64,000 nucleotides of DNA from Escherichia coli (lineage in GTDB: Bacteria > Pseudomonadota > Gammaproteobacteria > Enterobacterales > Enterobacteriaceae), in assembly GCF_030013595.1 (NCBI RefSeq), contig NZ_CP122768.1. One strand, given 5' to 3'. The notes beneath the pieces are model-generated. The model did not search any database. It saw only the letters and a program-made list of their open reading frames with translations, and was not told where the DNA came from. This document shows, piece by piece, positions 44,009 to 61,780 of this stretch (position 1 is the first letter of the stretch; every line of letters starts with the position of its first letter). Position numbers and translations under genes: made by a program.

Positions 44009-45337
44009 TTAGCGGCCTTTTGCCAGATATTGCTCCATCTCTTCTTCCGGCACCATTCCACCTCCCGTCGCCCACACCAGATGAGTGGCATTACGCAGTT
44101 GTTCTGCGCTGAAACCGTGCATCTGTTGGTAACTTACTGATGCGCACACGCGCTGAGGCCCGGCCATACCCGCCAGTGCCGAAGGTTCAAGACGAATACC
44201 TTCTTCCTGCGCCAGCCAGCCAAGCATGTCATACATGGTTTGATCGCTAAGGGTATAGAAGCCATCCAGTAGACGCTCCATTGCCCGCCCGACAAAGCCT
44301 GATGCGCGACCAACTGCAAGGCCATCCGCTGCGGTAAGGTTGTCGATACCAATATCCTGAACAGAAATCTGATCGTGTAATCCTGTATGGACGCCTAACA
44401 GCATACAAGGGGAGTGCGTTGGTTCGGCAAAAAAGCAGTGAACATGATCGCCAAATGCCAGTTTAAGCCCGAATGCGACGCCACCAGGACCACCGCCAAC
44501 ACCACACGGCAGATAGACAAACAGAGGGTTATCAGCATCGACAATACGACCTTGCTCGGCAAATTGCGCTTTAAGACGCTGGCCTGCGACGGAATACCCA
44601 AGGAACAACGTGCGGGAATTCTCGTCATCAATAAAGAAACAGTTCGGGTCAGACTGCGCTGCTTTACGTCCTTCCTCGACTGCAACACCATAATCTTGCT
44701 CATATTCCACGACCGTAACGCCATGGCTGCGCAGTTTCGCTTTTTTCCATGCCCGGGCATCAGAAGACATATGTACTGTCACCTTAAAGCCAATGCGGGC
44801 GCTCATAATGCCGATTGATAACCCCAGATTTCCGGTTGAGCCCACAGCAATGCTGTATTGGCTAAAGAACTGTTTAAACTCCGGAGAAAGCAGTTTGCTG
44901 TAGTCATCTTCAGGCGTCAGCAACCCCGCTTCCAGAGCCAGTTTTTCTGCATGTGCCAGGACTTCATAAATCCCGCCGCGTGCTTTTATGGAGCCGGAAA
45001 TGGGCAAATGGCTATCTTTTTTCAGTAGCAGTTGCCCGCTGATCGGTTGTTGATATTCCTTTTCCAGCCGTTTTTGCATAGCCGGAATGGCAACCAGTTC
45101 TGATTCAATAATCCCCCCAGTCGCAGCAGTTTCAGGAAATGCTTTTGCCAGATAGGGTGCAAAACGGGATAAGCGCGCATGGGCGTCCTGAACATCCTGT
45201 TCGGTCAGGCCAACATAAGGTAAACCTTCAGCCAATGAGGTCGTGCCAGGATTAAACCAGGTGGTTTCTTTAAGAGCAACCAGATCCTTTACCAACGGAT
45301 ACTGGGCGATGAGCGAGTTCATTTTAGCGTTTTCCAT
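44009..45337 (-). CDS. dsdA: D-serine ammonia-lyase (dehydratase)
   Basis: 442-aa PLP-dependent ORF (..SGSIKARGG..). Confidence 0.95.
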
Positions 45338-45354: not shown

Positions 45355-45590
45355 TTAGATGATAAATGACAGCAGGAATGTGCCCGCCAGAGCGACGACT
45401 GAAGCGATAAATGTCGCGGTCGTATAGTATTTAAATGTTTCATTGAGCGTAGCGCCGCAATATTGCTTCACCAGCCAGAAAAGCGAGTCCGTAACGATCG
45501 TGCAGCCAATCGCACCTGAACCGATAGCAATCGCAATAATTTCCGGGCTGATGTCGGGATACAGCGGCAGCACAATGATCCATATTTATA
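45355..45590 (-). pseudogene. dsdX: 3' remnant of dsdX (GntP-family D-serine permease), truncated by the csc insertion
   Basis: Only a C-terminal hydrophobic stretch (...SPEIIAIAIGSGAIGCTIVTDSLFWLVKQY...TFLLSFII) remains immediately upstream of dsdA; no N-terminal part and no dsdC; upstream boundary approximate. Confidence 0.7.
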
Positions 45591-45815: not shown

Positions 45816-46811
45816 ATGGCTTCATTAAAGGATGTCGCACGCCTGGCGGGAGTGTCGATGATGACAGTCTCCCGGGTGATGCATAATGCAGAATCTGTGC
45901 GTCCTGCAACGCGTAACCGCGTATTGCAGGCAATCCAGACCCTGAATTATGTTCCTGATCTTTCCGCCCGTAAGATGCGCGCTCAAGGACGTAAGCCGTC
46001 GACTCTCGCCGTGCTGGCGCAGGACACGGCCACCACTCCTTTCTCTGTTGATATTCTGCTTGCCATTGAGCAAACCGCCAGCGAGTTTGGCTGGAATAGT
46101 TTTTTAATCAATATTTTTTCTGAAGATGACGCTGCCCGCGCGGCACGTCAGCTGCTTGCCCACCGTCCGGATGGCATTATCTATACTACAATGGGGCTGC
46201 GACATATCACGCTGCCTGAGTCTCTGTATGGTGAAAATATTGTATTGGCGAACTGTGTGGCGGATGACCCAGCGTTACCCAGTTATATCCCTGATGATTA
46301 CACTGCACAATATGAATCAACACAGCATTTGCTCGCGGCGGGCTATCGTCAACCGTTATGCTTCTGGCTACCGGAAAGTGCGTTGGCAACAGGGTATCGT
46401 CGGCAGGGATTTGAGCAGGCCTGGCGTGATGCTGGACGAGATCTGGCTGAGGTGAAACAATTTCACATGGCAACAGGTGATGATCACTACACCGATCTCG
46501 CAAGTTTACTCAATGCCCACTTCAAATCGGGCAAACCAGATTTTGATGTTCTGATATGTGGTAACGATCGCGCAGCCTTTGTGGCTTATCAGGTTCTTTT
46601 GGCGAAGGGGGTACGTATCCCGAAGGATGTCGCCGTAATGGGCTTTGATAATCTGGTTGGCGTCGGGCATCTGTTTTTACCGCCGCTGACCACAATTCAG
46701 CTTCCACATGACATTATCGGGCGGGAAGCTGCATTGCATATTATTGAAGGTCGTGAAGGGGGAAGAGTGACGCGGATCCCTTGCCCGCTGTTGATCCGTT
46801 GTTCCACCTGA
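45816..46811 (+). CDS. cscR: LacI-family sucrose operon repressor
   Basis: ORF 45618-46811; start refined to ATG 45816 (MASLKDVARLAGVSMMTVSRV..., 331 aa); LacI-type HTH plus periplasmic-binding-protein fold. Confidence 0.85.
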   Translation: MASLKDVARLAGVSMMTVSRVMHNAESVRPATRNRVLQAIQTLNYVPDLSARKMRAQGRKPSTLAVLAQDTATTPFSVDILLAIEQTASEFGWNSFLINIFSEDDAARAARQLLAHRPDGIIYTTMGLRHITLPESLYGENIVLANCVADDPALPSYIPDDYTAQYESTQHLLAAGYRQPLCFWLPESALATGYRRQGFEQAWRDAGRDLAEVKQFHMATGDDHYTDLASLLNAHFKSGKPDFDVLICGNDRAAFVAYQVLLAKGVRIPKDVAVMGFDNLVGVGHLFLPPLTTIQLPHDIIGREAALHIIEGREGGRVTRIPCPLLIRCST

Positions 46812-46818: not shown

Positions 46819-48252
46819 TTAACCCAGTTGCCAGAGTGCTCCATGTTGCAGCACAGCCACTCCGTGGGAGGCATAGAGCGACAGTTCCCGTTCTTCTGGC
46901 TGCGGATATATTCGGCTACTCATCACCGCCTCCCCGTCGTTAATAAATACTTCCACGGATGATGTATCGATAAATATCCTTAGGGCGAGCATGTCACCCT
47001 GCGGGAGGGGAATACTACGGTAGCCATCTAAATTCTCGTGTGGGTAATACCGCCACAAAACAAGTCGCTCAGATTGGTTATCAATATACAGCCGCATTCC
47101 AGCGCCGAGCTGTAATCCGTAATGTTCGGCATCACTGTTCTTCAGCGCCCACTGCAACTGAATCTCAACTGCTTGCGCGTTTTCCTGCAAAACATATTTA
47201 TTGCTGATTGTGCGGGGAGAGATAGATTGATGCTGCTGGCGTAACGACTCAGCTTCGTGTACCGGGCGTTGTAGGAGTTTGCCATTGCTCTCTGATAGCT
47301 CGCGCGCCAGCGTCATGCAGCCTGCCCAGCCTTCACGTTTTGAGGGCATTGGCGATTCCCACATATCCATCCAGCCGATAACAATACGCCGACCATCCTT
47401 CGCTACAAAGCTTTGTGGTGCATAAAAGTCATGCCCGTTATCAAGTTCAGTAAAATGCCCGGATTGTGCAAAAAGTCGTCCTGGCGACCACATTCCGGGT
47501 ATTACGCCACTTTGAAAGCGATTTCGATAACTGTATCCCTCGGCATTCATTCCCTGCGGGGAAAACATCAGATAATGCTGATCGCCAAGGCTGAAAAAGT
47601 CCGGACATTCCCACATATAGCTTTCACCCGCATCAGCGTGGGCCAGTACGCGATCGAAAGTCCATTCACGCAATGAACTGCCGCGATAAAGCAGGATCTG
47701 CCCCGTGTTGCCTGGGTCTTTCGCCCCGACTACCATCCACCATGTGTCGGCTTCACGCCACACTTTAGGATCGCGGAAGTGCATGATGCCTTCTGGTGGA
47801 GTGAGGATCACACCCTGTTTCTCGAAATGAATACCATCCCGACTGGTAGCCAGACATTGTACTTCGCGAATTGCATCGTCATTACCTGCACCATCGAGCC
47901 AGACGTGTCCGGTGTAGATAAGTGAGAGGACACCATTGTCATCGACAGCACTACCTGAAAAACACCCGTCTTTGTCATTCTCGTCTCCTGGCGCTAGCGC
48001 AATAGGCTCATGCTGCCAGTGGATCATATCGTCGCTGGTGGCATGTCCCCAGTGCATTGGCCCCCAGTGTTCGCTCATCGGGTGATGTTGATAAAACGCG
48101 TGATAACGATCGTTAAACCAGATCAGGCCGTTTGGATCGTTCATCCACCCGGCAGGAGGCGCGAGGTGAAAATGGGGATAGAAAGTGTTACCTCGGCGCT
48201 CGTGAAGTTTTGCTAGTGCGTTTTGCGCCGCATGCAATCGAGATTGCGTCAT
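46819..48252 (-). CDS. cscA: sucrose-6-phosphate hydrolase/invertase (GH32)
   Basis: ORF 46819-48261 (start 48252 or 48261); GH32 motifs WMNDPNG and RDP present. Confidence 0.9.
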   Translation of the reverse strand: MTQSRLHAAQNALAKLHERRGNTFYPHFHLAPPAGWMNDPNGLIWFNDRYHAFYQHHPMSEHWGPMHWGHATSDDMIHWQHEPIALAPGDENDKDGCFSGSAVDDNGVLSLIYTGHVWLDGAGNDDAIREVQCLATSRDGIHFEKQGVILTPPEGIMHFRDPKVWREADTWWMVVGAKDPGNTGQILLYRGSSLREWTFDRVLAHADAGESYMWECPDFFSLGDQHYLMFSPQGMNAEGYSYRNRFQSGVIPGMWSPGRLFAQSGHFTELDNGHDFYAPQSFVAKDGRRIVIGWMDMWESPMPSKREGWAGCMTLARELSESNGKLLQRPVHEAESLRQQHQSISPRTISNKYVLQENAQAVEIQLQWALKNSDAEHYGLQLGAGMRLYIDNQSERLVLWRYYPHENLDGYRSIPLPQGDMLALRIFIDTSSVEVFINDGEAVMSSRIYPQPEERELSLYASHGVAVLQHGALWQLG

Positions 48253-48286
48253 TTTAATCATCCTGGTTAAGCAAATTTGGTGAATT

Positions 48287-48298
48287 GTTAACGTTAAC
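48287..48298. promoter_or_regulatory. putative CscR operator (palindrome GTTAACGTTAAC), copy 1
   Basis: Perfect 12-bp palindrome in the divergent cscA/cscK promoter region. Confidence 0.4.
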
Positions 48299-48350
48299 TT
48301 TTATAAAAATAAAGTCCCTTACTTTCATAAATGCGATGAATATCACAAAT

Positions 48351-48362
48351 GTTAACGTTAAC
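48351..48362. promoter_or_regulatory. putative CscR operator (palindrome GTTAACGTTAAC), copy 2
   Basis: Identical 12-bp palindrome 52 bp from copy 1. Confidence 0.4.
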
Positions 48363-48467
48363 TATGACGTTTTGTGATCGAATATGCATGTTTTAGTAAA
48401 TCCATGACGATTTTGCGAAAAAGAGGTTTATCACTATGCGTAAGTCAGATGAATTTAAGGGAAAAAA

Positions 48468-49382
48468 ATGTCAGCCAAAGTATGGGTTTTAGGGGATGCG
48501 GTCGTAGATCTCTTGCCAGAATCAGACGGGCGGCTACTGCCTTGTCCTGGCGGCGCGCCAGCTAACGTTGCGGTGGGAATCGCCAGATTAGGCGGAACAA
48601 GTGGGTTTATAGGTCGGGTCGGTGATGATCCTTTTGGTGCGTTAATGCAAAGAACGCTGCTAACTGAGGGTGTCGATATCACGTATCTGAAGCAAGATGA
48701 ATGGCACCGGACATCCACGGTGCTTGTCGATCTGAATGATCAAGGAGAACGTTCATTTACGTTTATGGTCCGCCCCAGTGCCGATCTTTTTTTAGAGACG
48801 ACAGACTTGCCCTGCTGGCGACATGGCGAATGGTTACATCTCTGTTCAATTGCGTTGTCTGCCGAGCCTTCGCGTACCAGCGCATTTACTGCGATGACGG
48901 CGATCCGGCATGCCGGAGGTTTTGTCAGCTTCGATCCCAATATTCGTGAAGATCTATGGCAAGACGAGCATTTGCTCCGCTTGTGTTTGCGGCAGGCGCT
49001 ACAACTGGCGGATGTCGTCAAGCTCTCGGAAGAAGAATGGCGACTTATCAGTGGAAAAACACAGAACGATCGGGATATATGCGCGCTGGCAAAAGAGTAT
49101 GAGATCGCCATGCTGTTGGTGACTAAAGGTGCAGAAGGGGTGGTGGTCTGTTATCGAGGACAAGTTCACCATTTTGCTGGAATGTCTGTGAATTGTGTCG
49201 ATAGTACTGGGGCGGGAGATGCGTTCGTTGCCGGGTTACTCACAGGTCTGTCCTCTACGGGGTTATCTACAGATGAGAGAGAAATGCGACGAATTATTGA
49301 TCTTGCTCAACGTTGCGGAGCGCTTGCAGTAACGGCGAAAGGGGCGATGACAGCGCTGCCATGTCGACAAGAACTGGAATAG
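48468..49382 (+). CDS. cscK: fructokinase (PfkB/ribokinase family)
   Basis: 304-aa ORF with GAGDAF motif. Confidence 0.9.
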   Translation: MSAKVWVLGDAVVDLLPESDGRLLPCPGGAPANVAVGIARLGGTSGFIGRVGDDPFGALMQRTLLTEGVDITYLKQDEWHRTSTVLVDLNDQGERSFTFMVRPSADLFLETTDLPCWRHGEWLHLCSIALSAEPSRTSAFTAMTAIRHAGGFVSFDPNIREDLWQDEHLLRLCLRQALQLADVVKLSEEEWRLISGKTQNDRDICALAKEYEIAMLLVTKGAEGVVVCYRGQVHHFAGMSVNCVDSTGAGDAFVAGLLTGLSSTGLSTDEREMRRIIDLAQRCGALAVTAKGAMTALPCRQELE

Positions 49383-49453
49383 TGAGAATTAAACGGCGAA
49401 GTCGCTCTTATCTCTAAATAGGACGTGAATTTTTTAACGACAGGCAGGTAATT

Positions 49454-50701
49454 ATGGCACTGAATATTCCATTCAGAAATGCGTACTATCGTTTGGCATC
49501 CAGTTACTCATTTCTCTTTTTTATTTCCTGGTCGCTGTGGTGGTCGTTATACGCTATTTGGCTGAAAGGACATCTAGGATTAACAGGGACGGAATTAGGT
49601 ACACTTTATTCGGTCAACCAGTTTACCAGCATTCTATTTATGATGTTCTACGGCATCGTTCAGGATAAACTCGGTCTGAAGAAACCGCTCATCTGGTGTA
49701 TGAGTTTCATTCTGGTCTTGACCGGACCGTTTATGATTTACGTTTATGAACCGTTACTGCAAAGCAATTTTTCTGTAGGTCTAATTCTGGGGGCGCTCTT
49801 TTTTGGCCTGGGGTATCTGGCGGGATGCGGTTTGCTTGACAGCTTCACCGAAAAAATGGCGCGAAATTTTCATTTCGAATATGGAACAGCGCGCGCCTGG
49901 GGATCTTTTGGCTATGCTATTGGCGCGTTCTTTGCCGGTATATTTTTTAGTATCAGTCCCCATATCAACTTCTGGTTGGTCTCGCTATTTGGCGCTGTAT
50001 TTATGATGATCAACATGCGTTTTAAAGATAAGGATCACCAGTGCATAGCGGCGGATGCGGGAGGGGTAAAAAAAGAGGATTTTATCGCAGTTTTCAAGGA
50101 TCGAAACTTCTGGGTTTTCGTCATATTTATTGTGGGGACGTGGTCTTTCTATAACATTTTTGATCAACAACTCTTTCCTGTCTTTTATGCAGGTTTATTC
50201 GAATCACACGATGTAGGAACGCGCCTGTATGGTTATCTCAACTCATTCCAGGTGGTACTCGAAGCGCTGTGCATGGCGATTATTCCTTTCTTTGTGAATC
50301 GGGTAGGGCCAAAAAATGCATTACTTATCGGTGTTGTGATTATGGCGTTGCGTATCCTTTCCTGCGCGTTGTTCGTTAACCCCTGGATTATTTCATTAGT
50401 GAAGCTGTTACATGCCATTGAGGTTCCACTTTGTGTCATATCCGTCTTCAAATACAGCGTGGCAAACTTTGATAAGCGCCTGTCGTCGACGATCTTTCTG
50501 ATTGGTTTTCAAATTGCCAGTTCGCTTGGGATTGTGCTGCTTTCAACGCCGACTGGGATACTCTTTGACCACGCAGGCTACCAGACAGTTTTCTTCGCAA
50601 TTTCGGGTATTGTCTGCCTGATGTTGCTATTTGGCATTTTCTTCCTGAGTAAAAAACGCGAGCAAATAGTTATGGAAACGCCTGTACCTTCAGCAATATA
50701 G
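49454..50701 (+). CDS. cscB: sucrose:H+ symporter (MFS, LacY-like)
   Basis: 415-aa 12-TM ORF. Confidence 0.9.
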   Translation: MALNIPFRNAYYRLASSYSFLFFISWSLWWSLYAIWLKGHLGLTGTELGTLYSVNQFTSILFMMFYGIVQDKLGLKKPLIWCMSFILVLTGPFMIYVYEPLLQSNFSVGLILGALFFGLGYLAGCGLLDSFTEKMARNFHFEYGTARAWGSFGYAIGAFFAGIFFSISPHINFWLVSLFGAVFMMINMRFKDKDHQCIAADAGGVKKEDFIAVFKDRNFWVFVIFIVGTWSFYNIFDQQLFPVFYAGLFESHDVGTRLYGYLNSFQVVLEALCMAIIPFFVNRVGPKNALLIGVVIMALRILSCALFVNPWIISLVKLLHAIEVPLCVISVFKYSVANFDKRLSSTIFLIGFQIASSLGIVLLSTPTGILFDHAGYQTVFFAISGIVCLMLLFGIFFLSKKREQIVMETPVPSAI

Positions 50702-51143
50702 ACGTAAACTTTTTCCGGTTGTTGTCGATATCTCCATATCCCTCAACCGGAAAATAATAATACAAAAATGCTTAGCCCAACTAATAATCACCTAATCCAA
50801 ACGCCTCATTCATGTTCTGGTACAGTCGCTCAAATGTACTCCGGATACGCGGTTCGCTGATTTCCAGGACATTGTCGTCATTCAGCGACCTGTCCCGAGT
50901 ATCACGGGCCTGCGAATTCATCAAGGAATGCATTGCAGAGTGAAGTATCGAGTCACGCCATATTTCGCTATCAGGATTCTGTATGATGGTTACATCGCCC
51001 GGCCCAGGGCTGTTTAGTCATCAGCGCTTTCTGACAGTGCTGAGATTTCAACCTGTTGCAGTAAAAATGAGTAGATATAGGGCAAGTGTGCTGCCAAACC
51101 CATCTTTTACGGGGTGAAGGTAGATTTGGTTTGAAGGGTATCT

Positions 51144-51158
51144 GGTGTCCCCTGCAGA
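51144..51158. other. putative prophage att core (attR): 15-nt identity to the 3' end of tRNA-Arg argW
   Basis: Minus strand reads CTGCAGGGGACACCA, matching the argW 3' terminus as recalled, without the rest of the tRNA; lies about 70 bp from the torI-like gene. Confidence 0.45.
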
Positions 51159-51230
51159 CATCTACTTGAGGCGGCAGGGGATTGATTGGAATGGTGTTTT
51201 TTAGATGTGAAAAATATTTTACCCGCTATT

Positions 51231-51431
51231 TTACCCATTGGCGCGGCTTAAGAGCTTATTTTTGAATTCACAATGGTCACGATATAACCATCTTGCTCGC
51301 CCGTGGATAACTTTGGCTTTTGGCAGGTCGCCGGACTTAATCCGGTCATAGATGAAGGTTTTACCGAATCCAGTATCGGCCATGATGAATTTCAAATCAA
51401 CCAGTGAATCAGGCTGTAGTTCGTGTTGCAT
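51231..51431 (-). CDS. torI: AlpA/Xis-family excisionase (recombination directionality factor), TorI-like
   Basis: 66-aa ORF at the prophage edge next to the att core; size and position match KplE1 TorI; identity from recall. Confidence 0.6.
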   Translation of the reverse strand: MQHELQPDSLVDLKFIMADTGFGKTFIYDRIKSGDLPKAKVIHGRARWLYRDHCEFKNKLLSRANG

Positions 51432-51562
51432 GAGTGCTATCTCCGAATAGGGAATCGAACCTGCAAATCAGGCAATAAAAAACCGCCATCAGGCGGCTTG
51501 GTGTTCTTTCAGTTCTTCAATTCGAATATTGGTTACATTGTTTTAATATATGAATAAATAAA

Positions 51563-51775
51563 TTAGCTTTTTTCGTTGCCTTCGCGTTCTTTATTAATTT
51601 TAACAAACTCGTTTTTACCACGCTCTCCAAATGCGTCTTTAGAGTCGTTGTATCCGCAATCGCAGCACACATAATCACCAGACCATCCACGCATTGTTTT
51701 TTCTTTTGCAATATTTCCAGAACCGCATTTTGGACAAGACATATCACTACCTCCAAAGCATGAGTGAGATGACAA
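51563..51775 (-). CDS. small Cys-rich zinc-finger protein (lambda Ea8.5 position)
   Basis: 70-aa ORF with CPKCGSG...CCDCGYN zinc-ribbon-like motifs. Confidence 0.4.
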   Translation of the reverse strand: MSSHSCFGGSDMSCPKCGSGNIAKEKTMRGWSGDYVCCDCGYNDSKDAFGERGKNEFVKINKEREGNEKS

Positions 51776-51838
51776 CGTAACATTGATTGGAGATTAACAA
51801 TAGATTGCTGATGTAAAAGATATGTATAAGCTTCGCTT

Positions 51839-52393
51839 TCAAAGTGGAGGCTCTGGTAGCGGCATCCAGTGTGACGGCTCACATACCACCTCAACACCGT
51901 TCATGTAAAAGAATTGAAATAACCCTTTACCTTTGTGAAACCCTACCATCTGCTCTTTTGTGTCTGAACAATAAACCAAAACATCTTCTTCGTTTGGCAT
52001 CCACTCACTACAGCTTATCCAACCATCTGGAATTACCGGAGAGTTGCCCGACATCTCATTCAACTTGTAAGTCTGGCTTACAGGTTTGGCTTCCAGTTCT
52101 GCAATGCGCTTACCTCCATCCGCGATTACTCCCTCGTAATATTCACGCTGCTCGTTGAGTTTTGATTTTGCTTCCTCAAGCTCAACTCTCAGCTTCCCTA
52201 CCGTTAGCGCAATATCCTCGTTCTCCTGGTCACGGCGTTTGATGTATTGCTGGTTTCTTTCCCGTTCATCCAGCAGTTCCAGCACAATCGATGGTGTTAC
52301 CAATTCATGGAAAAGGTCTGCGTCAAATCCCCAGTCGTCATGCATTGCCTGCTCTGCCGCTTCACGCAGTGCCTGAGAGTTAATTTCGCTCAC
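51839..52393 (-). CDS. Ead/Ea22-like early protein (DUF551-type)
   Basis: 184-aa ORF at the Ea22 position of the lambda early-left operon. Confidence 0.55.
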   Translation of the reverse strand: MSEINSQALREAAEQAMHDDWGFDADLFHELVTPSIVLELLDERERNQQYIKRRDQENEDIALTVGKLRVELEEAKSKLNEQREYYEGVIADGGKRIAELEAKPVSQTYKLNEMSGNSPVIPDGWISCSEWMPNEEDVLVYCSDTKEQMVGFHKGKGLFQFFYMNGVEVVCEPSHWMPLPEPPL

Positions 52394-52611
52394 TTCGAAC
52401 CTCTCTGTTTACTGATAAGTTCCAGATCCTCCTGGCAACTTGCACAAGTCCGACAACCCTGAACGGCCAAGCGTCTTCGTTCATCTATCGGATCGCCACA
52501 CTCACAACAATGAGTGGCAGATATAGCCTGGTGGTTCAGGCGGCGCATTTTTATTGCTGTGTTGCGCTGTAATTCTTCAATTTCTGATGCTGAATCAATG
52601 ATGTCTGCCAT
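52390..52611 (-). CDS. TraR/DksA-family C4 zinc-finger protein
   Basis: 73-aa ORF with CxxC-17-CxxC motif (CCECGDPIDERRRLAVQGCRTCASC). Confidence 0.55.
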   Translation of the reverse strand: MADIIDSASEIEELQRNTAIKMRRLNHQAISATHCCECGDPIDERRRLAVQGCRTCASCQEDLELISKQRGSK

Positions 52612-52709
52612 CTTTCATTAATCCCTGAATTGTTGGTTAATACGCTTGAGGGTGAATGCGAATAATAAAAAAGGAGCCTGTAGCTCCATGATGATTTTGT
52701 TTTTCATGC

Positions 52710-52991
52710 TCACCGTTCCTTAAAGACGCCGTTTAACATGCCGATCGCCAGGCTTAAATGAGTCGGTGTGAATCCCATCAGCGTTACCGTTTCGCGGTGC
52801 TTCTTCAGTACGCTACGGCAAATGTCATCGACGTTTTTATCCGGAAACTGCTGTCTGGCTTTTTTGATTTCATAATTAGCCTGACGGGCAATACTGCGAA
52901 GGGCGTTTTCTTGCTGAGGTGTCATTGAACAAGTCCCATGTCGGCAAGCATAAGCACACAGAATATGAAGCCCGCTGCCAGAAAAATGCAT
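52710..52991 (-). CDS. hypothetical phage early protein
   Basis: 93-aa ORF, co-oriented in the early-left operon; start uncertain. Confidence 0.35.
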   Translation of the reverse strand: MHFSGSGLHILCAYACRHGTCSMTPQQENALRSIARQANYEIKKARQQFPDKNVDDICRSVLKKHRETVTLMGFTPTHLSLAIGMLNGVFKER

Positions 52992-53001
52992 TCAGTGGTT
53001 G

Positions 53002-53193
53002 TCATACCTGGTCTCTCTCATCTGCTTCTGCTTTCGCCACCATCATTTCCAGCTTTTGTGAAAGGGATGTGGCTAACGTATGAAATTCTTCGTCTGTTTC
53101 TACTGGTATTGGCACAAACCTGACTCCAATTTGAGCGAGGCTATGTGCCATCTCGATACTCGTTCTTAACTCAACGGGAGATGCTTTGTGCAT
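53002..53193 (-). CDS. hypothetical phage early protein (lambda orf63 position)
   Basis: 63-aa ORF. Confidence 0.35.
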   Translation of the reverse strand: MHKASPVELRTSIEMAHSLAQIGVRFVPIPVETDEEFHTLATSLSQKLEMMVAKAEADERDQV

Positions 53194-53354
53194 ACAGCCC
53201 CCCGTTTATTATTTATCTCCTCAGCCAGCCGCTGGGCTTTCAGTGGATTTTGGATAACAGAAAGGCCGGGAAATACCCAGCCTCGCTTTGTAACGGAGTA
53301 GACGAAAGTGATCGCGCCTACCCGGATATTATCGTGAGGATGCGTCATCGCCAT
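53166..53354 (-). CDS. hypothetical phage early protein (lambda orf60a position)
   Basis: 62-aa ORF overlapping exo stop. Confidence 0.3.
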
Positions 53355-54025
53355 TGCTCCCCAAATACAAAACCAATTTCAGCCAGTGCCTCGTCCATTT
53401 TTTCGATGAACTCCGGCACCATCTCGTCAAAACTCGCCATGTACTTTTCATCCCGCTCAACCACGACATAATGCAGTCCTTCACGCTTCATACGCGGGTC
53501 ATAGTTGGCAAAGTACCAGGCATCTTTTCGCGTCACCCACATGCTGTACTGCACCTGGGCCATGTAAGCCGACTTTATGGCCTCGAAACCACCGAGCCGG
53601 AACTTCATGAAATCCCGGGAGGTAAACGGGCATTTCAGCTCAAGGCCATTGCCGTCACTGCATAAACCATCGGGAGAGCAGGCGGTGCGCATACTTTCGT
53701 CGCGATAGATGATCGGGGATTCAGTAACATTCACGCCGGAAGTGAATTCAAACAGGGTTCTGGCGTCGTTCTCGTACTGTTTTCCCCAGGCCAGCGCCTT
53801 AGCATTAACTTCCGGAGCCACACCGGTGCAAACCTCAGCCAGCAGGGTGTGGAAGTAGGACATTTTCATGTCAGGCCACTTCTTTCCTGAGCGGGGCTTT
53901 GCTATCACGTTGTGAACTTCTGAAGCGGTGATGACGCCGAGCCGTAATTTGTGCCACGCATCATCCCCCTGTTCGACAGCTCTCACGTCGATCCCGGTAC
54001 GCTGCAGGATAATGTCCGGTGTCAT
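53345..54025 (-). CDS. exo: lambda-type 5'-3' exonuclease (Red-alpha)
   Basis: 226-aa ORF, YqaJ-type recombinase exonuclease; followed by bet and gam. Confidence 0.9.
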
Positions 54026-54807
54026 GCAGCCACCTTCTGTTCAGAGGCTTTCTGTTTCAGGAATCCAAGAGCTTTCACTGCTTCGGCCTGTGTCAGTTCT
54101 GACGATGCGCGAATGTCGCGGCGAAATATCTGGGAACAGAGCGGCAATAAGTCGTCATCCCATGTTTTATCCAGGGCGATCAGCAGAGTGTTAATCTCCT
54201 GCATGGTTTCATCGTTAACCGGAGTGATGTCGCGTTCCGGCTGGCGTTCTGCAGTGTGTGCAGTATTTTCGACAATGCGCTCGGCTTCATCCTTGTCATA
54301 GATACCAGCAAATCCGAAGGCCAGACGGGCACACTGAATCATGGCTTTATGCCGTAACATCCGTTTGGGATGCGACTGCCACGCCCCCGTGATTTCTCTG
54401 CCTTCGCGAGTTTTGAATGGTTCGCGGCGGCATTCATCCATCCATTCGGTAACGCAGATCGGATGATTACGGTCCTTGCGGTAAATCCGGCATGTACAGG
54501 ATTCATTGTCCTGCTCAAAGTCCATGCCATCAAACTGCTGGTTTTCATTGATGATGCGGGACCAGCCATCAACGCCCACCACCGGAACGATGCCGTTCTG
54601 CTTATCAGGGAAGGCGTAAATTTCTTTCGTCCACGGATTAAGGCCGTACTGGTTGGCGACGATCAACAATGCGATGAACTGCGCATCGCTGGCATCACCT
54701 TTAAATGCCGTCTGGCGAAGAGTGGTGATCAGTTCCTGTGGGTCGACAGAATCCATGCCGACACGTTCAGCCAGCTTCCCTGCCAGCGTTGCGAGTGCTG
54801 TACTCAT
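54022..54807 (-). CDS. bet: single-strand annealing protein Bet (Red-beta)
   Basis: 261-aa ORF; overlaps exo start as in lambda. Confidence 0.9.
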
Positions 54808-54812
54808 CCGTT

Positions 54813-55109
54813 TTATACCTCTGAATCAATATCAACCTGGTGGTGAGCAATGGTTTCAACCATGTACCGGATGTGTTCTGCCATGCGCTCCTGAAACTCA
54901 ACATCGTCATCAAACGCACGGGTAATGGCTTTTTTGCTGGCCCCGTGGCGTTGCAAATGATCGATGCATAGCGATTCAAACAGGTGCTGGGGCAGGCCTT
55001 TTTCCATGTCGTCTGCCAGTTCTGCCTCTTTCTCTTCACGAGCGATCTGCTGGTAGTGACGCGCCCAGCTCTGAGCCTCAAGACGATCCTGAATGTAATA
55101 AGCGTTCAT
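54813..55109 (-). CDS. gam: host-nuclease (RecBCD) inhibitor Gam (short form)
   Basis: 98-aa [24 protein letters not shown]... matching lambda GamS as recalled. Confidence 0.9.
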
Positions 55110-55184
55110 GGCTGAACTCCTGAAAATGGCTGTGAAAATAGCGCCCGCGAAATGCCAGGCTGATTAGGAAAACAGGAAAGGGGG

Positions 55185-55328
55185 TTAGTGAATGCTTTTG
55201 CTTGATCTCAGTTTCAGCATTAATATCCATTTTTTATAAGCGTCGACGGCTTCACGAAACATCTTTTCATCGCCAATAAAAGTGGCGATAGTGAATTTAG
55301 TCTGGATAGCCATAAGTGTTTGATCCAT
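55185..55328 (-). CDS. kil: host-killing protein Kil
   Basis: 47-aa [12 protein letters not shown]... within ORF 55185-55454; overlaps cIII by 32 nt as in lambda. Confidence 0.8.
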
Positions 55329-55461
55329 TTTTTGGGACTCCTGGCTGATTAAGTATGTCGATAAGGCGTTTCCATCCGTCACGTAATTTACGGGTGATTC
55401 GTTCAAGTAAAGATTCGGAAGGGCAGCCAGCAACAGGCCACCCTGCAATGGCATATTGCAT
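55297..55461 (-). CDS. cIII: cIII (FtsH protease inhibitor)
   Basis: Manual translation gives [54 protein letters not shown] (54 aa); below ORF-track cutoff. Confidence 0.85.
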   Translation of the reverse strand: MQYAIAGWPVAGCPSESLLERITRKLRDGWKRLIDILNQPGVPKNGSNTYGYPD

Positions 55462-55533
55462 GGTGTGCTCCTTATTTATACATAACGAAAAACGCCTCGA
55501 GTGAAGCGTTATTGGTATGCGGTAAAGCCGCGC

Positions 55534-55845
55534 TTAGGCGGCTGATGTTTCTTCTTTCAGGCTTTCGAGATATTTACGTGGGTCGTCGTAACATTGGCAT
55601 TCGCTGTACCAATCCACCCAGCGATCAGTAAGCCCCACCTCTGATAAATCTTCATCGGTAAGGCTCTCATCCCACATCTCAAGGCCGTTAGCATTGCAGT
55701 AATCAGGCTTGATGTTGTTGTCATACTGAAAGGCGTCATAATCAGCCAGTGCGTCCATCAGGCGAACACCCTCTTCAACACTTGCCACTTCTACAATGAA
55801 CGGCTTCATAGGTACTTGCGGGATATGCCAGACACGTAATTTCAT
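55534..55845 (-). CDS. hypothetical acidic protein (lambda ea10 position)
   Basis: 103-aa ORF, strongly acidic, Trp/Cys-containing. Confidence 0.5.
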   Translation of the reverse strand: MKLRVWHIPQVPMKPFIVEVASVEEGVRLMDALADYDAFQYDNNIKPDYCNANGLEMWDESLTDEDLSEVGLTDRWVDWYSECQCYDDPRKYLESLKEETSAA

Positions 55846-55989
55846 ATTTCCTCCGTCAAAAAAATGCCCTCACACTGGAGGGCAAAGAAGATTTCCAATA
55901 ATCAGAACAAGTCGGCTCCTGTTTAGTTACGAGCGACATTGCTCCGTGTATTCACTCGTTGGAATGAATACACAGTGCTTATTCGCAGC

Positions 55990-56316
55990 CTACATAATCA
56001 TTCCGGTTATTATTACCATTTCAATATCGCTATCTTTCATAATGATTGGAGTTGAGTTATCAACTTTACTTTTACTCCATTTTCCTGCATCAGTTTTTAC
56101 CGCTCCACAATAAGAAAGCCAATCATCATCACAATGTTCTGGATCACTAATTCTGACAAGAACACGTGATAGTGCTTTTTCGATACTTTCATCACAATTA
56201 GCATTTGTGTAATTGCCGTGAGACAATTTCAAATCGTTAACTTCATCTTCATTGGCATCAAAAATATAGATTTCAGTCGACTCTGGAACATTTTCATAAA
56301 CCATTAAAACTTTCAT
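55990..56316 (-). CDS. hypothetical protein, AT-rich moron-like gene
   Basis: ORF 55990-56397; likely start ATG 56316 (MKVLMVYENVPE...) after GGGG RBS; low GC relative to flanks. Confidence 0.45.
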   Translation of the reverse strand: MKVLMVYENVPESTEIYIFDANEDEVNDLKLSHGNYTNANCDESIEKALSRVLVRISDPEHCDDDWLSYCGAVKTDAGKWSKSKVDNSTPIIMKDSDIEMVIITGMIM

Positions 56317-56356
56317 TTTTACCCCATATTGTTTATGCCAAAAATAAAGGCCACCA

Positions 56357-56557
56357 TTAGGCAGCCTTGTTGTTCTGTTTACCAAGTTCTCTGGCAATCA
56401 TTGCCGTCGTTCGTATTGCCCATTTATCGACATATTTCCCATCTTCCATTACAGGAAACATTTCTTCAGGCTTAACCATGCATTCCGATTGCAGCTTGCA
56501 TCCATTGCATCGTTTGAATTGTCCACACCATTGATTTGTATCAATAGTCGTAGTCAT
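56357..56557 (-). CDS. ral: Ral-like small Cys-rich protein (restriction alleviation), tentative
   Basis: 66-aa ORF with CGQFKRCNGC motif at the ral position and size; identity from recall. Confidence 0.5.
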   Translation of the reverse strand: MTTTIDTNQWCGQFKRCNGCKLQSECMVKPEEMFPVMEDGKYVDKWAIRTTAMIARELGKQNNKAA

Positions 56558-56627
56558 ACGGATAGTCCTGGTATTGTTCCATCACATCCTGAGGATGCTC
56601 TTCGAACTCTTCAAATTCTTCTTCCAT
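56541..56627 (-). CDS. possible 28-aa acidic leader peptide (MEEEFEEFEEHPQDVMEQYQDYPYDYDY)
   Basis: Short ORF with strong GAGGTGA RBS 6 nt upstream of ATG; its stop overlaps the ral-like start. Confidence 0.25.
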   Translation of the reverse strand: MEEEFEEFEEHPQDVMEQYQDYPYDYDY

Positions 56628-56685
56628 ATCTCACCTCAAATAAGTGGTTTGCTGCCTAATTTCATTTTCTGGCGACCAACACAAG

Positions 56686-56958
56686 TCATCTTGCTGTCAG
56701 CTGTTTGGATTTCCTGTAGCCTGCCGCGTAAATGGCTACATTTGGAAGACAAGTTGAGCCTTCATATTTTCTGGTCAACGTTGTCAGTGTTATTACTTCT
56801 GCTCTCATTACTGGTTTGCGTTTGCATTGTAAGACCACTCGTGAAGGGGTTGGCCTGTGTAGCTTGTCAGAGCTGATCGCCTCCTGACTTTGCAGGTTTG
56901 CACGACGAGCTCTACGGCGAGAAGCTGCGGTGCCTTTAAATTCTGTTTTTCTGGACAT
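56686..56958 (-). CDS. N-like transcription antiterminator (P22 gene 24 type)
   Basis: ORF 56686-57030; start refined to ATG 56958 after GGGAGGA RBS; arginine-rich motif AASRRRARRANLQ; C-terminus ...IYAAGYRKSKQLTAR. Confidence 0.75.
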   Translation of the reverse strand: MSRKTEFKGTAASRRRARRANLQSQEAISSDKLHRPTPSRVVLQCKRKPVMRAEVITLTTLTRKYEGSTCLPNVAIYAAGYRKSKQLTAR

Positions 56959-57056
56959 AGATTCCTCCCGAATAAACTTTGGCGATGCAATCTCGAAGCT
57001 CCTCCTGAGACGGTTGCTTCGGCATTGCATCCCACAGCTTATATGGTTGGGTGATC

Positions 57057-57070
57057 TGGCTTTTCAGCCA
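57057..57070 (-). promoter_or_regulatory. putative nutL boxB hairpin
   Basis: Transcript-sense UGGCUGAAAAGCCA stem-loop between the putative pL and N start. Confidence 0.35.
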
Positions 57071-57148
57071 CGTAGTCGAGTGTTCGACGTTGTTTAAAGA
57101 GCCTGCCAGTCTGCTCCGTTTGGCTTACAGCGTCCTGCTGACGGTTAA

Positions 57149-57177
57149 ATAGTACGATATGTACTTTATTGGGTCAA
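57149..57177 (-). promoter_or_regulatory. putative pL promoter
   Basis: TTGACC -35 and TACTAT -10 with 17-nt spacer on minus strand upstream of N. Confidence 0.35.
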
Positions 57178-57397
57178 TACAATTTGTTCTAAAATGGGGT
57201 GATTTTTTATAACGCTTTGTATTTAATAGTGTTGTTTTTTAGCGTGGGTGTATCGCCTCGGCGATGTAAGGAGAGATCAGAATTGCGTGGTTTAGTGAGT
57301 TGTATCTATTTATTTTTCAATAAATACATTTGGTTATGTGTCTTTAGGTGGGGGCGTGAGGCAAAGAAAACCCGGCTCGGTGGCCGGGTTGATGGGA

Positions 57398-58255
57398 TTA
57401 TCGTTTATTTCTTTGATGTTTCTTTGCTGACTCAGCTTGAGTGTTTCCATACCTGCGTTTACCGCTATTGTTTTTTCCTCTAGGCTTGCCTTTTTTTCGA
57501 TCTTCCCACCAGTCAGGTGCCGGGTCTGGCTCAACATGTAAAGCATCGGCAAGTCCTGATATCAAGCTGTATGACTGAACTCCATCAATGTGCTCTGACA
57601 GTGATGGGGTAACATTCTGTCTTAGTGGATCAAGAATAAAATCAATACCTTTAATTCTGGCGTGTTTGGCGGCAGGCACAAAGTCTGAGTCCCCAGCAAC
57701 AAGGACAATTACATCAACAAGTTTTTCATAAGCTAAAGTCGTGATATCCATCCCTAGCTTGATATCAACTTGTTTTTGTTTGATGTCATAGTAAAAATCA
57801 TCATTTGTCAGTTCATCCCATTTTTTCGTTCCTTTCATCAGAGCATCAAGGGAGAATGTAGTTAGTTGCCATCGCTTATTATCAACAAGATTCCCTAATC
57901 TTAAGGCTGTTTTTCGAGTTTTTCTTAACTCTTCATGCAGCTCCGTTCTCAGAATATATGATTTTTCGAGTTTGAAATTCTTGCGACCAGGCGTCTTATT
58001 GCCAGGCTCAGGAAGTGGAAGGCGTGTTTGAATGTCGAGTGGTGGACAGTCATAGAAGTAAATTCTATAAAGCTCAAGCGGTTCCCTACGTTCTTGTGAT
58101 TGACGTTTTCCATTAAGATGGGAAAGAACCATTGACCATATTACTTTCATTATGCATTGCGCAGTCAGTTCATGCTCGGCGAAGTGTTTACGATGCGTAG
58201 CATGAACACGCTGCATGAAAAAACCCGCATCAATTAAAATTGCTGCTTTCTTCAT
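57398..58255 (-). CDS. NYN/LabA-like (PIN-fold) nuclease-domain protein with Lys/Arg-rich C-terminal tail; candidate prophage exclusion/defence protein in the rex position
   Basis: 285-aa ORF: N-terminal AILIDAGFF and central VLVAGDSDFVPAAKHARIKGIDF NYN-type motifs; basic tail; between cI and pL/N; AT-rich. Confidence 0.75.
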   Translation of the reverse strand: MKKAAILIDAGFFMQRVHATHRKHFAEHELTAQCIMKVIWSMVLSHLNGKRQSQERREPLELYRIYFYDCPPLDIQTRLPLPEPGNKTPGRKNFKLEKSYILRTELHEELRKTRKTALRLGNLVDNKRWQLTTFSLDALMKGTKKWDELTNDDFYYDIKQKQVDIKLGMDITTLAYEKLVDVIVLVAGDSDFVPAAKHARIKGIDFILDPLRQNVTPSLSEHIDGVQSYSLISGLADALHVEPDPAPDWWEDRKKGKPRGKNNSGKRRYGNTQAESAKKHQRNKR

Positions 58256-58382
58256 AAGAGTCCCAAAAAAATAGCCCAGAGCCGTTATGCAGATATTAAC
58301 AATTGTCTGCGAACGGGGCTGGGCTTGGTTTAATTAATCTATGCCAAGTTGACTGTGCCGTCAACATAAAACTTACTTCCTA

Positions 58383-59036
58383 TCACCCAAACGTCTCTTC
58401 AGGCCACTGACTAGCGATAACTTTCCCCACAACGGAACAACTCTCATTGCATGGGATCATTGGGTATTGTGGGTTTAGTGGCTGTAGAAACACCTGACCG
58501 CTATCCCTGATCAGTTTCTTGAAGGTAAACTCATCACCACCAAGTCTGGCTATACAGAAATCGCCTGGCTCAACAGCCTGCTCAGGGTCAACCAGAATTA
58601 ACATCCCGTCAGGAAAGCTGGGCTTGGATCCTGTTGGTGCGGTCATGGAATTACCTTCAACCTCAAGCCAGAATGCAGAGCCACTGGCTTTTTTGGTTGT
58701 GCTTACCAATCTCTCCGCATCGCCTTTGGTAAAGGTTCTGAGTTCTGGAGAGAACATCCCAGCCTGAACATGAGAAAATACAGGGTACTCATATTGTTTT
58801 TTAACTGGGGCCGATGAGTATTCGCCAACAGGTGAAAATGTCCCGTCGTGGTTGAATGATATGTTATCAATACCAAGGTATTTAAACACCACACCAATAT
58901 CACTAAGAGATGGATGACGAGATCCGCGCAACCAGTGTCCAATCCCACCCTGCGTCATACCTAGCTCTTCGGCTAACTTCTCTTGAGTTATGCCGAGCTC
59001 TTTCATTCTGGATCTAGCCAGTTCATACCATTTCAT
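58383..59036 (-). CDS. cI: cI-type prophage repressor (HTH plus S24 LexA-like peptidase domain)
   Basis: ORF 58383-59084; probable start ATG 59036 ([10 protein letters not shown]...) 7 nt after AAGGA; C-terminal GNSMTAP...KKL...PLNPQYPMI autocleavage domain. Confidence 0.85.
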
Positions 59037-59152
59037 TTTCATGTCCTTATTATTACGCTCTGTACTGGAACCATCAATGCACAATGTGTATTTTTGCTTG
59101 TATTTGGAAAGTACATATTGTATTTTTTATTCGAGGTTACTATGGAGGGCAT

Positions 59153-59368
59153 ATGAGCAACCTACGAAAATATCGAGAGTCACTGAATATCTCTCAAACA
59201 ACACTTGCTAAGGCAGTTGGATGCACACAGGGAGCTATCGGACATTGGGAATCTGGTCGTCGCTTCCCAGACCTTAAAACATGCCGTGCTCTTGTTGCGT
59301 GCCTAAATAAGTTAGGCGCAAAAGTAAGTCTTGATGACGTGTTCCCGCCGGAACACAAAGCCGCTTAA
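59153..59368 (+). CDS. cro: Cro-like HTH repressor
   Basis: ORF 59084-59368; start refined to ATG 59153 after GGAGGG; HTH QTTLAKAVGCTQGAIGHWE; divergent from cI. Confidence 0.7.
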   Translation: MSNLRKYRESLNISQTTLAKAVGCTQGAIGHWESGRRFPDLKTCRALVACLNKLGAKVSLDDVFPPEHKAA

Positions 59369-59509
59369 TAAGCGGAGCCGCTCTTTGTAACAACGGACAT
59401 TCGTCCTACGTCGCTGAAAAGCGAGTCCCAAGATATCTGACCAACTAAGGCCATATGCGTTTCCACGCATACCTTTCAACTAACTATTCACTATTGGAAA
59501 TCTTAAGAA

Positions 59510-59806
59510 ATGGAACGAACAAGTTACAGCAAACTATCACAGCGTGACGTTGATCGCGCAGAAACAGATTTACTCATCAACCTATCAACGCTTACCCAGC
59601 GCGGTCTGGCAAAGATGATTGGCTGTCATGAATCGAAGATAAGCAGAACGGACTGGAGATTTATTGCTTCGGTCTTGTGTGCTTTCGGAATGGCATCAGA
59701 CATCAGTCCGATTAGCAGGGCTTTTAAGTATGCGCTTGATGAAATCACAAAGAAAAAATCCCCGGCCGCCACCGAGGATTTTAAGCAAATTGATATGCAA
59801 TTCTGA
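59510..59806 (+). CDS. cII: CII-like transcriptional activator
   Basis: 98-aa ORF; C-terminus ...KKKSPAATEDFKQIDMQF resembles lambda CII ...KKRPAATERSEQIQMEF. Confidence 0.8.
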   Translation: MERTSYSKLSQRDVDRAETDLLINLSTLTQRGLAKMIGCHESKISRTDWRFIASVLCAFGMASDISPISRAFKYALDEITKKKSPAATEDFKQIDMQF

Positions 59807-59838
59807 GGGAATTACTGGATCAATCTACAGGGGTCATT

Positions 59839-60738
59839 ATGACAAATACAGCAAAAATACTCAACTTCTGCAGAGGTAACTTTGCCGAACAGGAGCGTAA
59901 TGTGGCAGATCTCGATGATGGTTACGCCAGACTATCAAATATGCTGCTTGAGGCTTATTCAGGCGCAGATCTGACCAAGCGACAGTTTAAAGTGCTGCTT
60001 GCCATTCTGCGTAAAACCTATGGGTGGAATAAACCAATGGACAGAATCACCGATTCTCAACTTAGCGAGATTACAAAGTTACCTGTCAAACGGTGCAATG
60101 AAGCCAAGTTAGAGCTCGTCAGAATGAATATTATCAAGCAGCAAGGCGGCATGTTTGGACCAAATAAAAACATCTCAGAATGGTGTATCCCTCAAAACGA
60201 GGGAAAATCCCCTAAAACGAGGGATAAAACATCCCTCAAATTGGGGGATTGCTATCCCTCAAAACAGGGGAACACAAAAGACACTAATACAAAAGAAAAA
60301 AGAAAAGATTATTCGTCAGAGAATTCTGGCGAATCCTCTGACCAGCCAGAAAACGATCTTTCTGTGGTTAAACCGGATGCTGCAATTCAGAGCGGCAGCA
60401 AGTGGGGAACAGCAGAAGACCTGACCGCCGCAGAGTGGATGTTTGACATGGTGAAGACCATCGCGCCATCAGCCAGAAAACCGAATTTTGCTGGGTGGGC
60501 TAACGATATCCGCCTGATGCGTGAACGTGACGGACGTAACCACCGCGATATGTGTGTGCTTTTCCGCTGGGCCTGCCAGGACAACTTCTGGTCCGGTAAC
60601 GTGCTGAGTCCGGCCAAACTCCGCGACAAGTGGACCCAGCTCGAAATCAACCGTAACAAGCAACAGGCAGGCGTGACAGCCAGCAAACCAAAACTCGACC
60701 TGACAAACACTGACTGGATTTACGGGGTGGATTTATGA
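59839..60738 (+). CDS. O: replication initiator O
   Basis: 299-aa ORF essentially identical to lambda O as recalled; contains ori iterons. Confidence 0.95.
   Translation: MTNTAKILNFCRGNFAEQERNVADLDDGYARLSNMLLEAYSGADLTKRQFKVLLAILRKTYGWNKPMDRITDSQLSEITKLPVKRCNEAKLELVRMNIIKQQGGMFGPNKNISEWCIPQNEGKSPKTRDKTSLKLGDCYPSKQGNTKDTNTKEKRKDYSSENSGESSDQPENDLSVVKPDAAIQSGSKWGTAEDLTAAEWMFDMVKTIAPSARKPNFAGWANDIRLMRERDGRNHRDMCVLFRWACQDNFWSGNVLSPAKLRDKWTQLEINRNKQQAGVTASKPKLDLTNTDWIYGVDL
60187..60270 (+). repeat. ori-lambda iterons (four approx. 18-bp repeats ATCCCTCAAAACGAGGGA-like) followed by AT-rich segment
   Basis: Directly visible repeats tccctcaaaacgaggga / tcccctaaaacgaggga / tccctcaaattggggga / tccctcaaaacagggg inside O. 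Confidence 0.7.
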
Positions 60739-61436: not shown

Positions 61437-61723
61437 CGGGCAAAGAGGCAATTATTCATTACCTGGGGACGCATAATAGCTTCTGTGCGCCGGACGTTGC
61501 CGCGCTAACAGGCGCAACAGTAACCAGCATAAATCAGGCCGCGGCTAAAATGGCACGGGCAGGTCTTCTGGTTATCGAAGGTAAGGTCTGGCGAACGGTG
61601 TATTACCGGTTTGCTACCAGGGAAGAACGGGAAGGAAAGATGAGCACGAACCTGATTTTTAAGGAGTGTCGCCAGAGTGCCGCGATGAAACGGGTATTGG
61701 CGGTATATGGAGTTAAAAGATGA
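61433..61723 (+). CDS. ren: Ren (Rex exclusion protection protein)
   Basis: 96-aa ORF immediately after P with ATGA overlap. Confidence 0.85.
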   Translation: MTGKEAIIHYLGTHNSFCAPDVAALTGATVTSINQAAAKMARAGLLVIEGKVWRTVYYRFATREEREGKMSTNLIFKECRQSAAMKRVLAVYGVKR

Positions 61724-61749
61724 CCATCTACATTACTGAGCTAATAACA

Positions 61750-61780
61750 GGCCTGCTGGTAATCGCAGGCCTTTTTATTT
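61750..61780 (+). terminator. tR2-like rho-independent terminator
   Basis: caggcctgctggtaatcgcaggcc hairpin followed by TTTTTATTT between ren and ninB. Confidence 0.5.

Follow-up and report, generated by a model that had tools for sequence, protein, structure and literature searches.

Two identical palindromes between cscA and cscK of Escherichia coli as very probable CscR operators in a bidirectional, cAMP-CRP-dependent control region

The intergenic region between the divergent sucrose genes cscA and cscK of Escherichia coli contains two identical 12-bp palindromes. These are very probably operators of the repressor CscR, lying in a compact, bidirectional, cAMP-CRP-dependent control region and acting by two-site simple repression. 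Their identity as operators rests on sequence, genomic context, conservation, and published genetics, in which loss of cscR and mutations in the operators lead to derepression. The twin palindromes were already described in 2002, and the present analysis is a correct rediscovery rather than a new finding. Here, "the window" denotes the whole stretch of E. coli DNA that was analyzed (64,000 nucleotides), and the palindromes are called O1 (cscA proximal) and O2 (on the cscK side).

The csc locus and its surroundings

The window contains an intact E. coli csc sucrose locus, composed of cscR, cscA, cscK, and cscB:

45816 to 46811, plus strand: cscR, intact LacI-family repressor, 331 aa, convergent with cscA (translation; RefSeq "sucrose operon repressor CscR")
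46819 to 48252, minus strand: cscA, sucrose hydrolase (invertase, GH32), 477 aa (TIGR01322 scrB_fam, E = 5e-143; RefSeq cscA)
48468 to 49382, plus strand: cscK, fructokinase, 304 aa here (NF006957, E = 1.2e-152; RefSeq)
49454 to 50701, plus strand: cscB, LacY-type sucrose/H+ symporter, 415 aa (TIGR00882 oligosaccharide MFS transporter, E = 8.6e-179; RefSeq sucrose MFS transporter)

The divergent genes cscA (ATG at 48252, minus strand) and cscK (ATG at 48468, plus strand) are separated by 215 bp. Near-identical E. coli genomes in RefSeq carry the gene series emrY, dsdA, dsdX remnant (pseudogene), cscR, cscA, cscK, and cscB, and their annotated starts of cscA and cscK correspond to window positions 48252 and 48468. 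An ATG further upstream (48261), which appears as the cscA start in the list of open reading frames, was rejected in favor of 48252 on the basis of the RefSeq annotation and the 477-aa length. The cscA-cscK intergenic region is present at an identity of at least 95% in 2663 of 5426 complete E. coli genomes.

CscR has the Pfam domain structure of a LacI-family protein, with a LacI helix-turn-helix (HTH) domain at residues 3 to 48 (E = 1.3e-21) and a Peripla_BP_1 domain at residues 61 to 329 (E = 3.4e-93). CscR has a full-length match (window 45816 to 46808; E = 5e-114) in a solved structure, PDB entry 6NDI (334 aa, two chains), whose only annotation is "Transcriptional regulator," and thus a close structural template for CscR exists.

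Several features of the surrounding DNA were also recorded. The product of cscK comprises 304 aa in the window versus 307 aa in two RefSeq E. coli genomes (49370 to 49395): one extra T (GGAATAGTGAG versus GGAAAGTGAG) leads to a TAG codon and to the loss of the last three residues (SEK), which is probably harmless. A dsdX remnant of 72 codons with a missing N terminus (45355 to 45573, minus strand; a GntT/GntP/DsdX family permease pseudogene in RefSeq) adjoins an intact dsdA (44009 to 45337, minus strand), and dsdC is absent between these genes and cscR. We take the dsdX remnant and the missing dsdC to reflect the known event in which csc replaced part of the D-serine locus. Downstream of cscB, ARAGORN found no argW (tRNA-Arg) in the window (50702 to 64000). 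This segment consists of lambdoid prophage genes (bet, exo, gam, and others) that are approximately 97% identical to O157:H7 prophage segments; in strain NY1601, argW lies approximately 450 bp after cscB. Given the lack of argW after cscB and the presence of lambdoid prophage genes, a prophage appears to have integrated at the argW hotspot beside csc.

Two identical palindromes in the cscA-cscK gap

The initial annotation had reported identical perfect 12-bp palindromes at 48287 to 48298 and 48351 to 48362, 64 bp apart from center to center, and a sequence search reproduced both exactly. Their reported location between divergent cscA and cscK was likewise correct, as 48253 to 48467 is exactly the intergenic region of these two genes. 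The palindromes are as follows:

48287 to 48298, no strand: O1, cscA-proximal putative CscR operator, GTTAACGTTAAC, exact palindrome
48351 to 48362, no strand: O2, cscK-side putative CscR operator, GTTAACGTTAAC, exact palindrome

The 12-mer is its own reverse complement, with a dyad (GTTAAC/GTTAAC) on the central CG, and the likeness between the two copies extends beyond it to 17 nt (AATTGTTAACGTTAACT versus AAATGTTAACGTTAACT; 94%). No other exact copies exist in the 64-kb window. When up to two mismatches were allowed, the window contained 10 matches versus 2.0 expected, and none of 100 shuffled sequences reached 10. Palindromy per se was rejected as a signal, since the window includes 17 perfect 12-bp palindromes versus 15.9 +/- 3.5 in shuffled sequences. 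What departs from chance is that one palindrome recurs within 76 bp and that it is conserved. A role as a hairpin, cruciform, or terminator was also rejected, because the palindrome consists of two AT-rich 6-bp halves without a loop or a T-run.

The center of O1 lies 40 bp upstream of the cscA ATG, where O1 overlaps the putative cscA transcription start, and that of O2 lies 111.5 bp upstream of the cscK ATG. LacI-family operators are described as even-length palindromes with a central CG pair, typically located 30 to 140 bp upstream of the regulated start codon (PMC4052901). O1 and O2 are even-length palindromes centered on CG, both distances fall within this range, and the same locus encodes a regulator, CscR, with an intact HTH.

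Conservation of the palindromes across CscR loci

A scan with CscR as the query, using one genome per species, yielded 74 loci encoding relatives with 49 to 96% identity, plus six distant LacI proteins from Lachnospiraceae. The 74 loci span Escherichia, Citrobacter, Pluralibacter, Tatumella, Pectobacterium, Samsonia, Rosenbergiella, Klebsiella, Raoultella, Enterobacter, Serratia, Yersinia, Proteus, Providencia, Gilliamella/Orbaceae, Aeromonas, and others. At up to one mismatch, GTTAACGTTAAC was present in 73 of the 74 loci, in intergenic DNA beside cscA, a cscB-like permease gene, or cscR, and it occurred as a pair in 63 of them. The motif therefore accompanies CscR orthologues beside csc genes in other genomes, and it is kept across different gene orders, namely, cscA and cscK in divergence (E. 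coli), cscA and cscB in divergence (Rosenbergiella), and cscR in divergence from an operon of a permease gene and cscA (Klebsiella, Enterobacter, and Serratia). The locus DNA (1.18 Mb) contained 155 such sites, versus roughly 3 expected by an arithmetic estimate.

Closer to E. coli, when seven intergenic regions from Escherichia, Citrobacter, and Pluralibacter were aligned, all 24 operator columns were invariant, compared with 55 of the 191 other intergenic columns (Fisher p = 2.8e-12); between the operators, 12 to 29 of 52 bases differ from those of the window. A position weight matrix (PWM) trained on non-Escherichia loci only recovered O1 and O2, and no other site, from the 64-kb window, with scores of 26.7 bits for O1 and 26.9 bits for O2 (next-best window match, 10.4; maximum in shuffled sequences, 13.7). 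The same matrix detected neither an autoregulatory site for cscR nor auxiliary operators within the csc genes (best scores, -6.1 upstream of cscR and 0.6 within genes). The fuller consensus is aaT-GTTAACGTTAAC-Att, and its central TAACGTTA is 97 to 100% conserved among 117 distinct sites. The HTH and hinge residues of CscR are nearly invariant across 72 orthologues, which is consistent with an unchanged operator. The proposal in the initial annotation that the location and symmetry of the palindromes fit LacI-family CscR operators thus gains support from the co-occurrence of the motif with CscR orthologues across many genera as well as from published work (see below).

Some loci depart from the common arrangement. 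The sole locus of the 74 without the motif, L018 (Providencia rustigianii), encodes a CscR relative with 55% identity. This orphan regulator has none of cscA, cscK, and cscB in its neighborhood and lacks a CscR-type site within 8 kb. In L063 (Providencia alcalifaciens DSM 30120; 7780 to 7791 and 7844 to 7855), both operators lack the central CG and form a mirror-image pair, GTTAATGTTAAC and GTTAACATTAAC, each being the reverse complement of the other; their spacing is still 64 bp, and no regulator in the set is more divergent (49% identity). Nine Gilliamella/Orbaceae loci from the bee gut (L029, L033, L036, L038, L039, L044, L048, L065, and L071) contain a second group of CscR-type sites in the cscB-cscR gap, approximately 150 to 300 bp upstream of cscR (e.g., L065, 7824 to 7849). 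This group consists of two copies 14 bp apart (20 bp in L048), with TTTAACGTTAAC and, in most loci, GTTAATGTTAAC; such closely spaced tandem sites were not seen in enterics. Seven of the nine loci also have cscA-cscK sites, either as a 57-bp pair (L029, L036, L044, and L065) or as a single exact site (L038, L039, and L071), the exceptions being L033 and L048, in which no cscA or cscK was seen.

Palindrome pairs of a similar kind also occur in distant relatives. Five Lachnospiraceae loci (L075 and L077 to L080) encode LacI-family proteins with 25 to 27% identity to CscR and carry pairs of GTTAGCGCTAAC-like palindromes, 140 to 200 bp apart and approximately 30 to 230 bp upstream of their own regulator genes, which indicates that this half-site type is shared well beyond CscR.

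Published genetics and the identity of the regulator

According to PMC11251922 and PMC3938415, Jahreis et al. (2002; J Bacteriol 184:5307) described a 12-bp inverted repeat that occurs twice between cscA and cscK and proposed both copies as CscR operators, and a copy of the repeat was the site of a derepressing up-mutation (PMC11251922). A later study reported that the repeats flank the -35 and -10 elements of the cscA promoter, with the downstream repeat overlapping the start site, that a Crp-cAMP site adjoins the cscA -35 element, and that the repeats are conserved in five species (PMC11251922; Front Microbiol 2024). Separate cscA and cscKB operator sites and two cAMP-CRP sites were assigned to the bidirectional promoter in the intergenic region in another study, in which a spontaneous mutation of the cscKB operator allowed growth on low sucrose, a cyaA insertion abolished sucrose use, and the inducer of CscR was described as not yet established by experiment (PMC3938415; PLoS One 2014). 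Loss of cscR derepresses the regulon (PMC3938415 and PMC6599523), and inactivation of cscR was the most prevalent mutation in sucrose-evolved lineages of E. coli W (PMC6599523). A search of the open literature for electrophoretic mobility shift assays or footprints of E. coli CscR returned none; the only work found was on a different regulator in Bifidobacterium.

As relayed in these later papers, the operators of Jahreis et al. and the palindromes in the window are the same object: two 12-bp repeats in the cscA-cscK gap, on either side of the cscA promoter, accompanied by a Crp site and by operator-constitutive mutations. No substantive difference from the relayed description is apparent, and the window carries the wild-type sequence. 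O2 presumably corresponds to the published cscKB operator.

An extremely improbable alternative is that the palindromes are bound by another regulator (Cra/FruR, PurR, or another LacI paralogue with an AAC/GTT core) or that they are a functionless chance duplication of two HpaI sites. The central AACGTT core does resemble the centers of other LacI-family operators, and the GTTAGCGCTAAC sites upstream of the Lachnospiraceae genes indicate that the half-site type is not unique to CscR. However, the motif accompanies CscR orthologues in 73 of 74 loci despite several gene rearrangements and does not occur elsewhere in the 64-kb window, and the conservation statistics rule out chance duplication. 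Moreover, operator mutations and cscR loss produce the same derepressed phenotype in the published accounts, the operator mutations partly as relayed from the 2002 work (PMC11251922, PMC3938415, and PMC6599523).

Architecture of the bidirectional control region

Between the two start codons, the elements are ordered as O1, the cscA core promoter, CRP site 1, O2, CRP-like site 2, and the presumed cscKB promoter. The elements in addition to the operators are as follows:

48306 to 48311, minus strand: candidate cscA -10 element, TATTTT, read from the sequence; TAT(T/C)TT is conserved in the Escherichia/Citrobacter/Pluralibacter alignment
48332 to 48347, no strand: CRP site 1, TGCGATGAATATCACA, one mismatch to TGTGA-N6-TCACA; strongly conserved block in 38 modules
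48373 to 48388, no strand: CRP-like site 2, TGTGATCGAATATGCA, left half consensus and right half weak; three mismatches to the 10 consensus bases

When 38 distinct modules with an operator spacing of 64 bp were compared without gaps, four conserved blocks emerged, i.e., O1, CRP site 1, O2, and the left half of CRP-like site 2. CRP site 1 is one of only three sites in the window with at most one mismatch to TGTGA-N6-TCACA, and it is probably the class II activator site of the cscA promoter. The left half of CRP-like site 2, GTTTTGTGATC, is invariant in the Escherichia/Citrobacter/Pluralibacter alignment, and TGnGATC is conserved in the 38 modules; this site is probably the activator site of the cscKB promoter. 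The TCACA of CRP site 1 and the TGTGA of CRP-like site 2 belong to an 8-bp inverted repeat that flanks O2, which is separated from the two sites by 3 bp and 10 bp, respectively.

A scan of 48200 to 48520 for consensus sigma-70 promoters and terminators detected none. CRP-dependent promoters usually lack consensus-grade sigma-70 elements. The candidate -10 element of cscA was thus placed only by conservation and CRP geometry. On this basis, transcription of cscA would start near 48298/48299, with CRP site 1 at approximately -41 (class II geometry) and O1 at approximately +1 to +12, a layout that agrees with the published description (PMC11251922).

For cscK, two promoter candidates can be proposed, one with TATCAC at 48429 to 48434 and CRP-like site 2 at approximately -61, and one with a class II start near 48422; neither has a good -35 element at legal spacing. 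A conserved TTTATCA block at 48427 to 48433 would likewise set CRP-like site 2 at approximately -61. A small upstream open reading frame that overlaps the cscK start (ATG at 48437, preceded by GAGG) was rejected, as its frame is not conserved in Citrobacter or Pluralibacter. The control region is also spanned by a 14-nt inverted repeat (48315 to 48328 and 48449 to 48462; TCCCTTACTTTCAT and ATGAATTTAAGGGA, 86% complementary), the second arm of which covers the ribosome-binding site of cscK. Its arms are probably on different transcripts, and the repeat is therefore likely due to chance.

Mode of repression

We infer which operator serves which promoter, the transcription starts, and the manner in which O2 represses. 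In the absence of inducer, one CscR dimer would occupy each 12-bp core, with its dyad on the central CG. CscR bound at O1 would cover roughly positions +1 to +12 of cscA and block RNA polymerase. At O2, which abuts CRP site 1 and lies between both CRP sites, bound CscR would most likely hinder the CRP-dependent activation of cscKB and also that of cscA. High sucrose, or a product thereof, would release CscR. O2 is located more than 45 bp upstream of every plausible -10 element of cscK, and simple occlusion of RNA polymerase at cscK is thus unlikely; the proposed interference with CRP would matter most for cscKB.

The two operators could also act jointly. CscR dimers on O1 and O2 might touch across the 64 bp (approximately 6.1 turns, on the same face), enclosing the cscA core promoter and CRP site 1 in a small loop, so that both operators would be needed for full repression of both operons; we regard this model as unlikely. 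The conserved spacing is compatible with same-face cooperative binding, as judged from the sequences: it is 64 bp in 37 pairs, 63 bp in 6, and 62 bp in 2, across genera and gene arrangements. In the 38 distinct modules, the 33-bp segment from O1 to CRP site 1 varies in sequence but contains no indel, which points to a length constraint, and related sugar repressors, ScrR among them, commonly have twin operators (PMC11251922). However, an O1 site over the start site and an O2 site just upstream of a CRP site at approximately -41 already fix most of the O1-O2 distance. The spacing is also not universal: besides 45 pairs at 62 to 64 bp (approximately 6 turns), 4 pairs are spaced at 57 bp (5.4 turns), as in the Gilliamella group, and 9 pairs at 68 to 69 bp (6.5 turns), as in Proteus; both spacings are about half a turn off, which would place the sites on opposite faces of the helix. 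In several Providencia loci, only one site was found at up to one mismatch.

The structure of the repressor argues against looping of the LacI type as well, which depends on a C-terminal tetramerization helix. Residues 3 to 318 of CscR align to residues 5 to 313 of the 360 residues of LacI, with 13 residues remaining, and CscR matches the LacI-family profile PRK09526 over positions 6 to 328 of 358. CscR therefore ends before the position of the C-terminal helix of LacI and is without this element.

The position of O2 between CRP site 1 (48332 to 48347) and CRP-like site 2 (48373 to 48388), which lie 41 bp apart in a conserved arrangement, brings to mind anti-activation of the CytR type. CscR at O2 would then bind together with CRP through protein contact and mask the activating surfaces of CRP without competition for DNA. 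The best NCBIfam match of CscR is indeed the CytR model (E = 5e-40), yet this match is far below the cutoff of the model. The O2 palindrome is perfect and strongly conserved, as is typical of an autonomous high-affinity operator, whereas CytR sites are weak and CRP dependent. The 41-bp spacing of the CRP sites is also unlike that at CytR-regulated promoters, which is approximately 52 to 53 bp. Finally, only 3 bp separate the cores of CRP site 1 and O2, so that steric competition is likelier than co-binding. We consider the CytR-like model very unlikely, and the two-site simple repression outlined above is the reading that we favor.

Comparison with related regulatory systems

The csc control region resembles the ScrR system in that the downstream operator overlaps the start site and a CRP site is located upstream. 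The ScrR operator, in contrast, has a different sequence and is 14 bp long, and the ScrR system is PTS based, with a known inducer (fructose or fructose-1-phosphate). The two regulators belong to nonorthologous branches and are treated as separate sucrose regulators (PMC4052901).

With LacI and its operators (lac O1, O2, and O3), the csc system shares the protein family, the placement of a palindromic operator on the start site and of an auxiliary one upstream by a CRP site, and CRP-dependent promoters. LacI, however, forms loops as a tetramer through its C-terminal helix, whereas CscR ends before that segment, and the lac operators comprise one strong and two weak sites, whereas the csc operators are identical and perfect. 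The complexes of CytR and CRP (e.g., at deoP2) likewise have a LacI-family repressor site between two CRP sites. CytR differs in that it needs CRP to bind and recognizes weak, flexible half-sites, whereas csc O2 is a perfect, conserved palindrome and its flanking CRP sites are 41 bp apart.

Implications

Earlier publications already report the sites, what they probably do, and that they are conserved, and nothing in the present results is new in kind. The survey widens the known conservation of the repeats from five species (PMC11251922) to over 70 species with several gene orders, shows the conserved spacing, and documents the conserved module of O1, promoter, CRP site, O2, and CRP site, which represents an incremental addition.

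The indel-free 64-bp spacing, retained in dozens of species despite divergence of the sequence in between, and the position of O2, wedged between two CRP sites, could reflect a higher-order complex of CscR, CRP, and DNA, formed through either a dimer-dimer micro-loop or CytR-like co-binding, although we judge such a complex to be distinctly unlikely. If it exists, it would act as a common switch for both divergent promoters and might be the reason why the sucrose threshold of induction (>1%) is unusually high.

Industrial E. coli strains that use sucrose are engineered on the basis of the csc regulon, and the exact positions of the CscR and CRP sites are of help when its promoters are to be derepressed or retuned. 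In genome annotation, O1 and O2 can be labeled as CscR operators with confidence, and the consensus aaT-GTTAACGTTAAC-Att is usable for csc-like loci across Enterobacterales.
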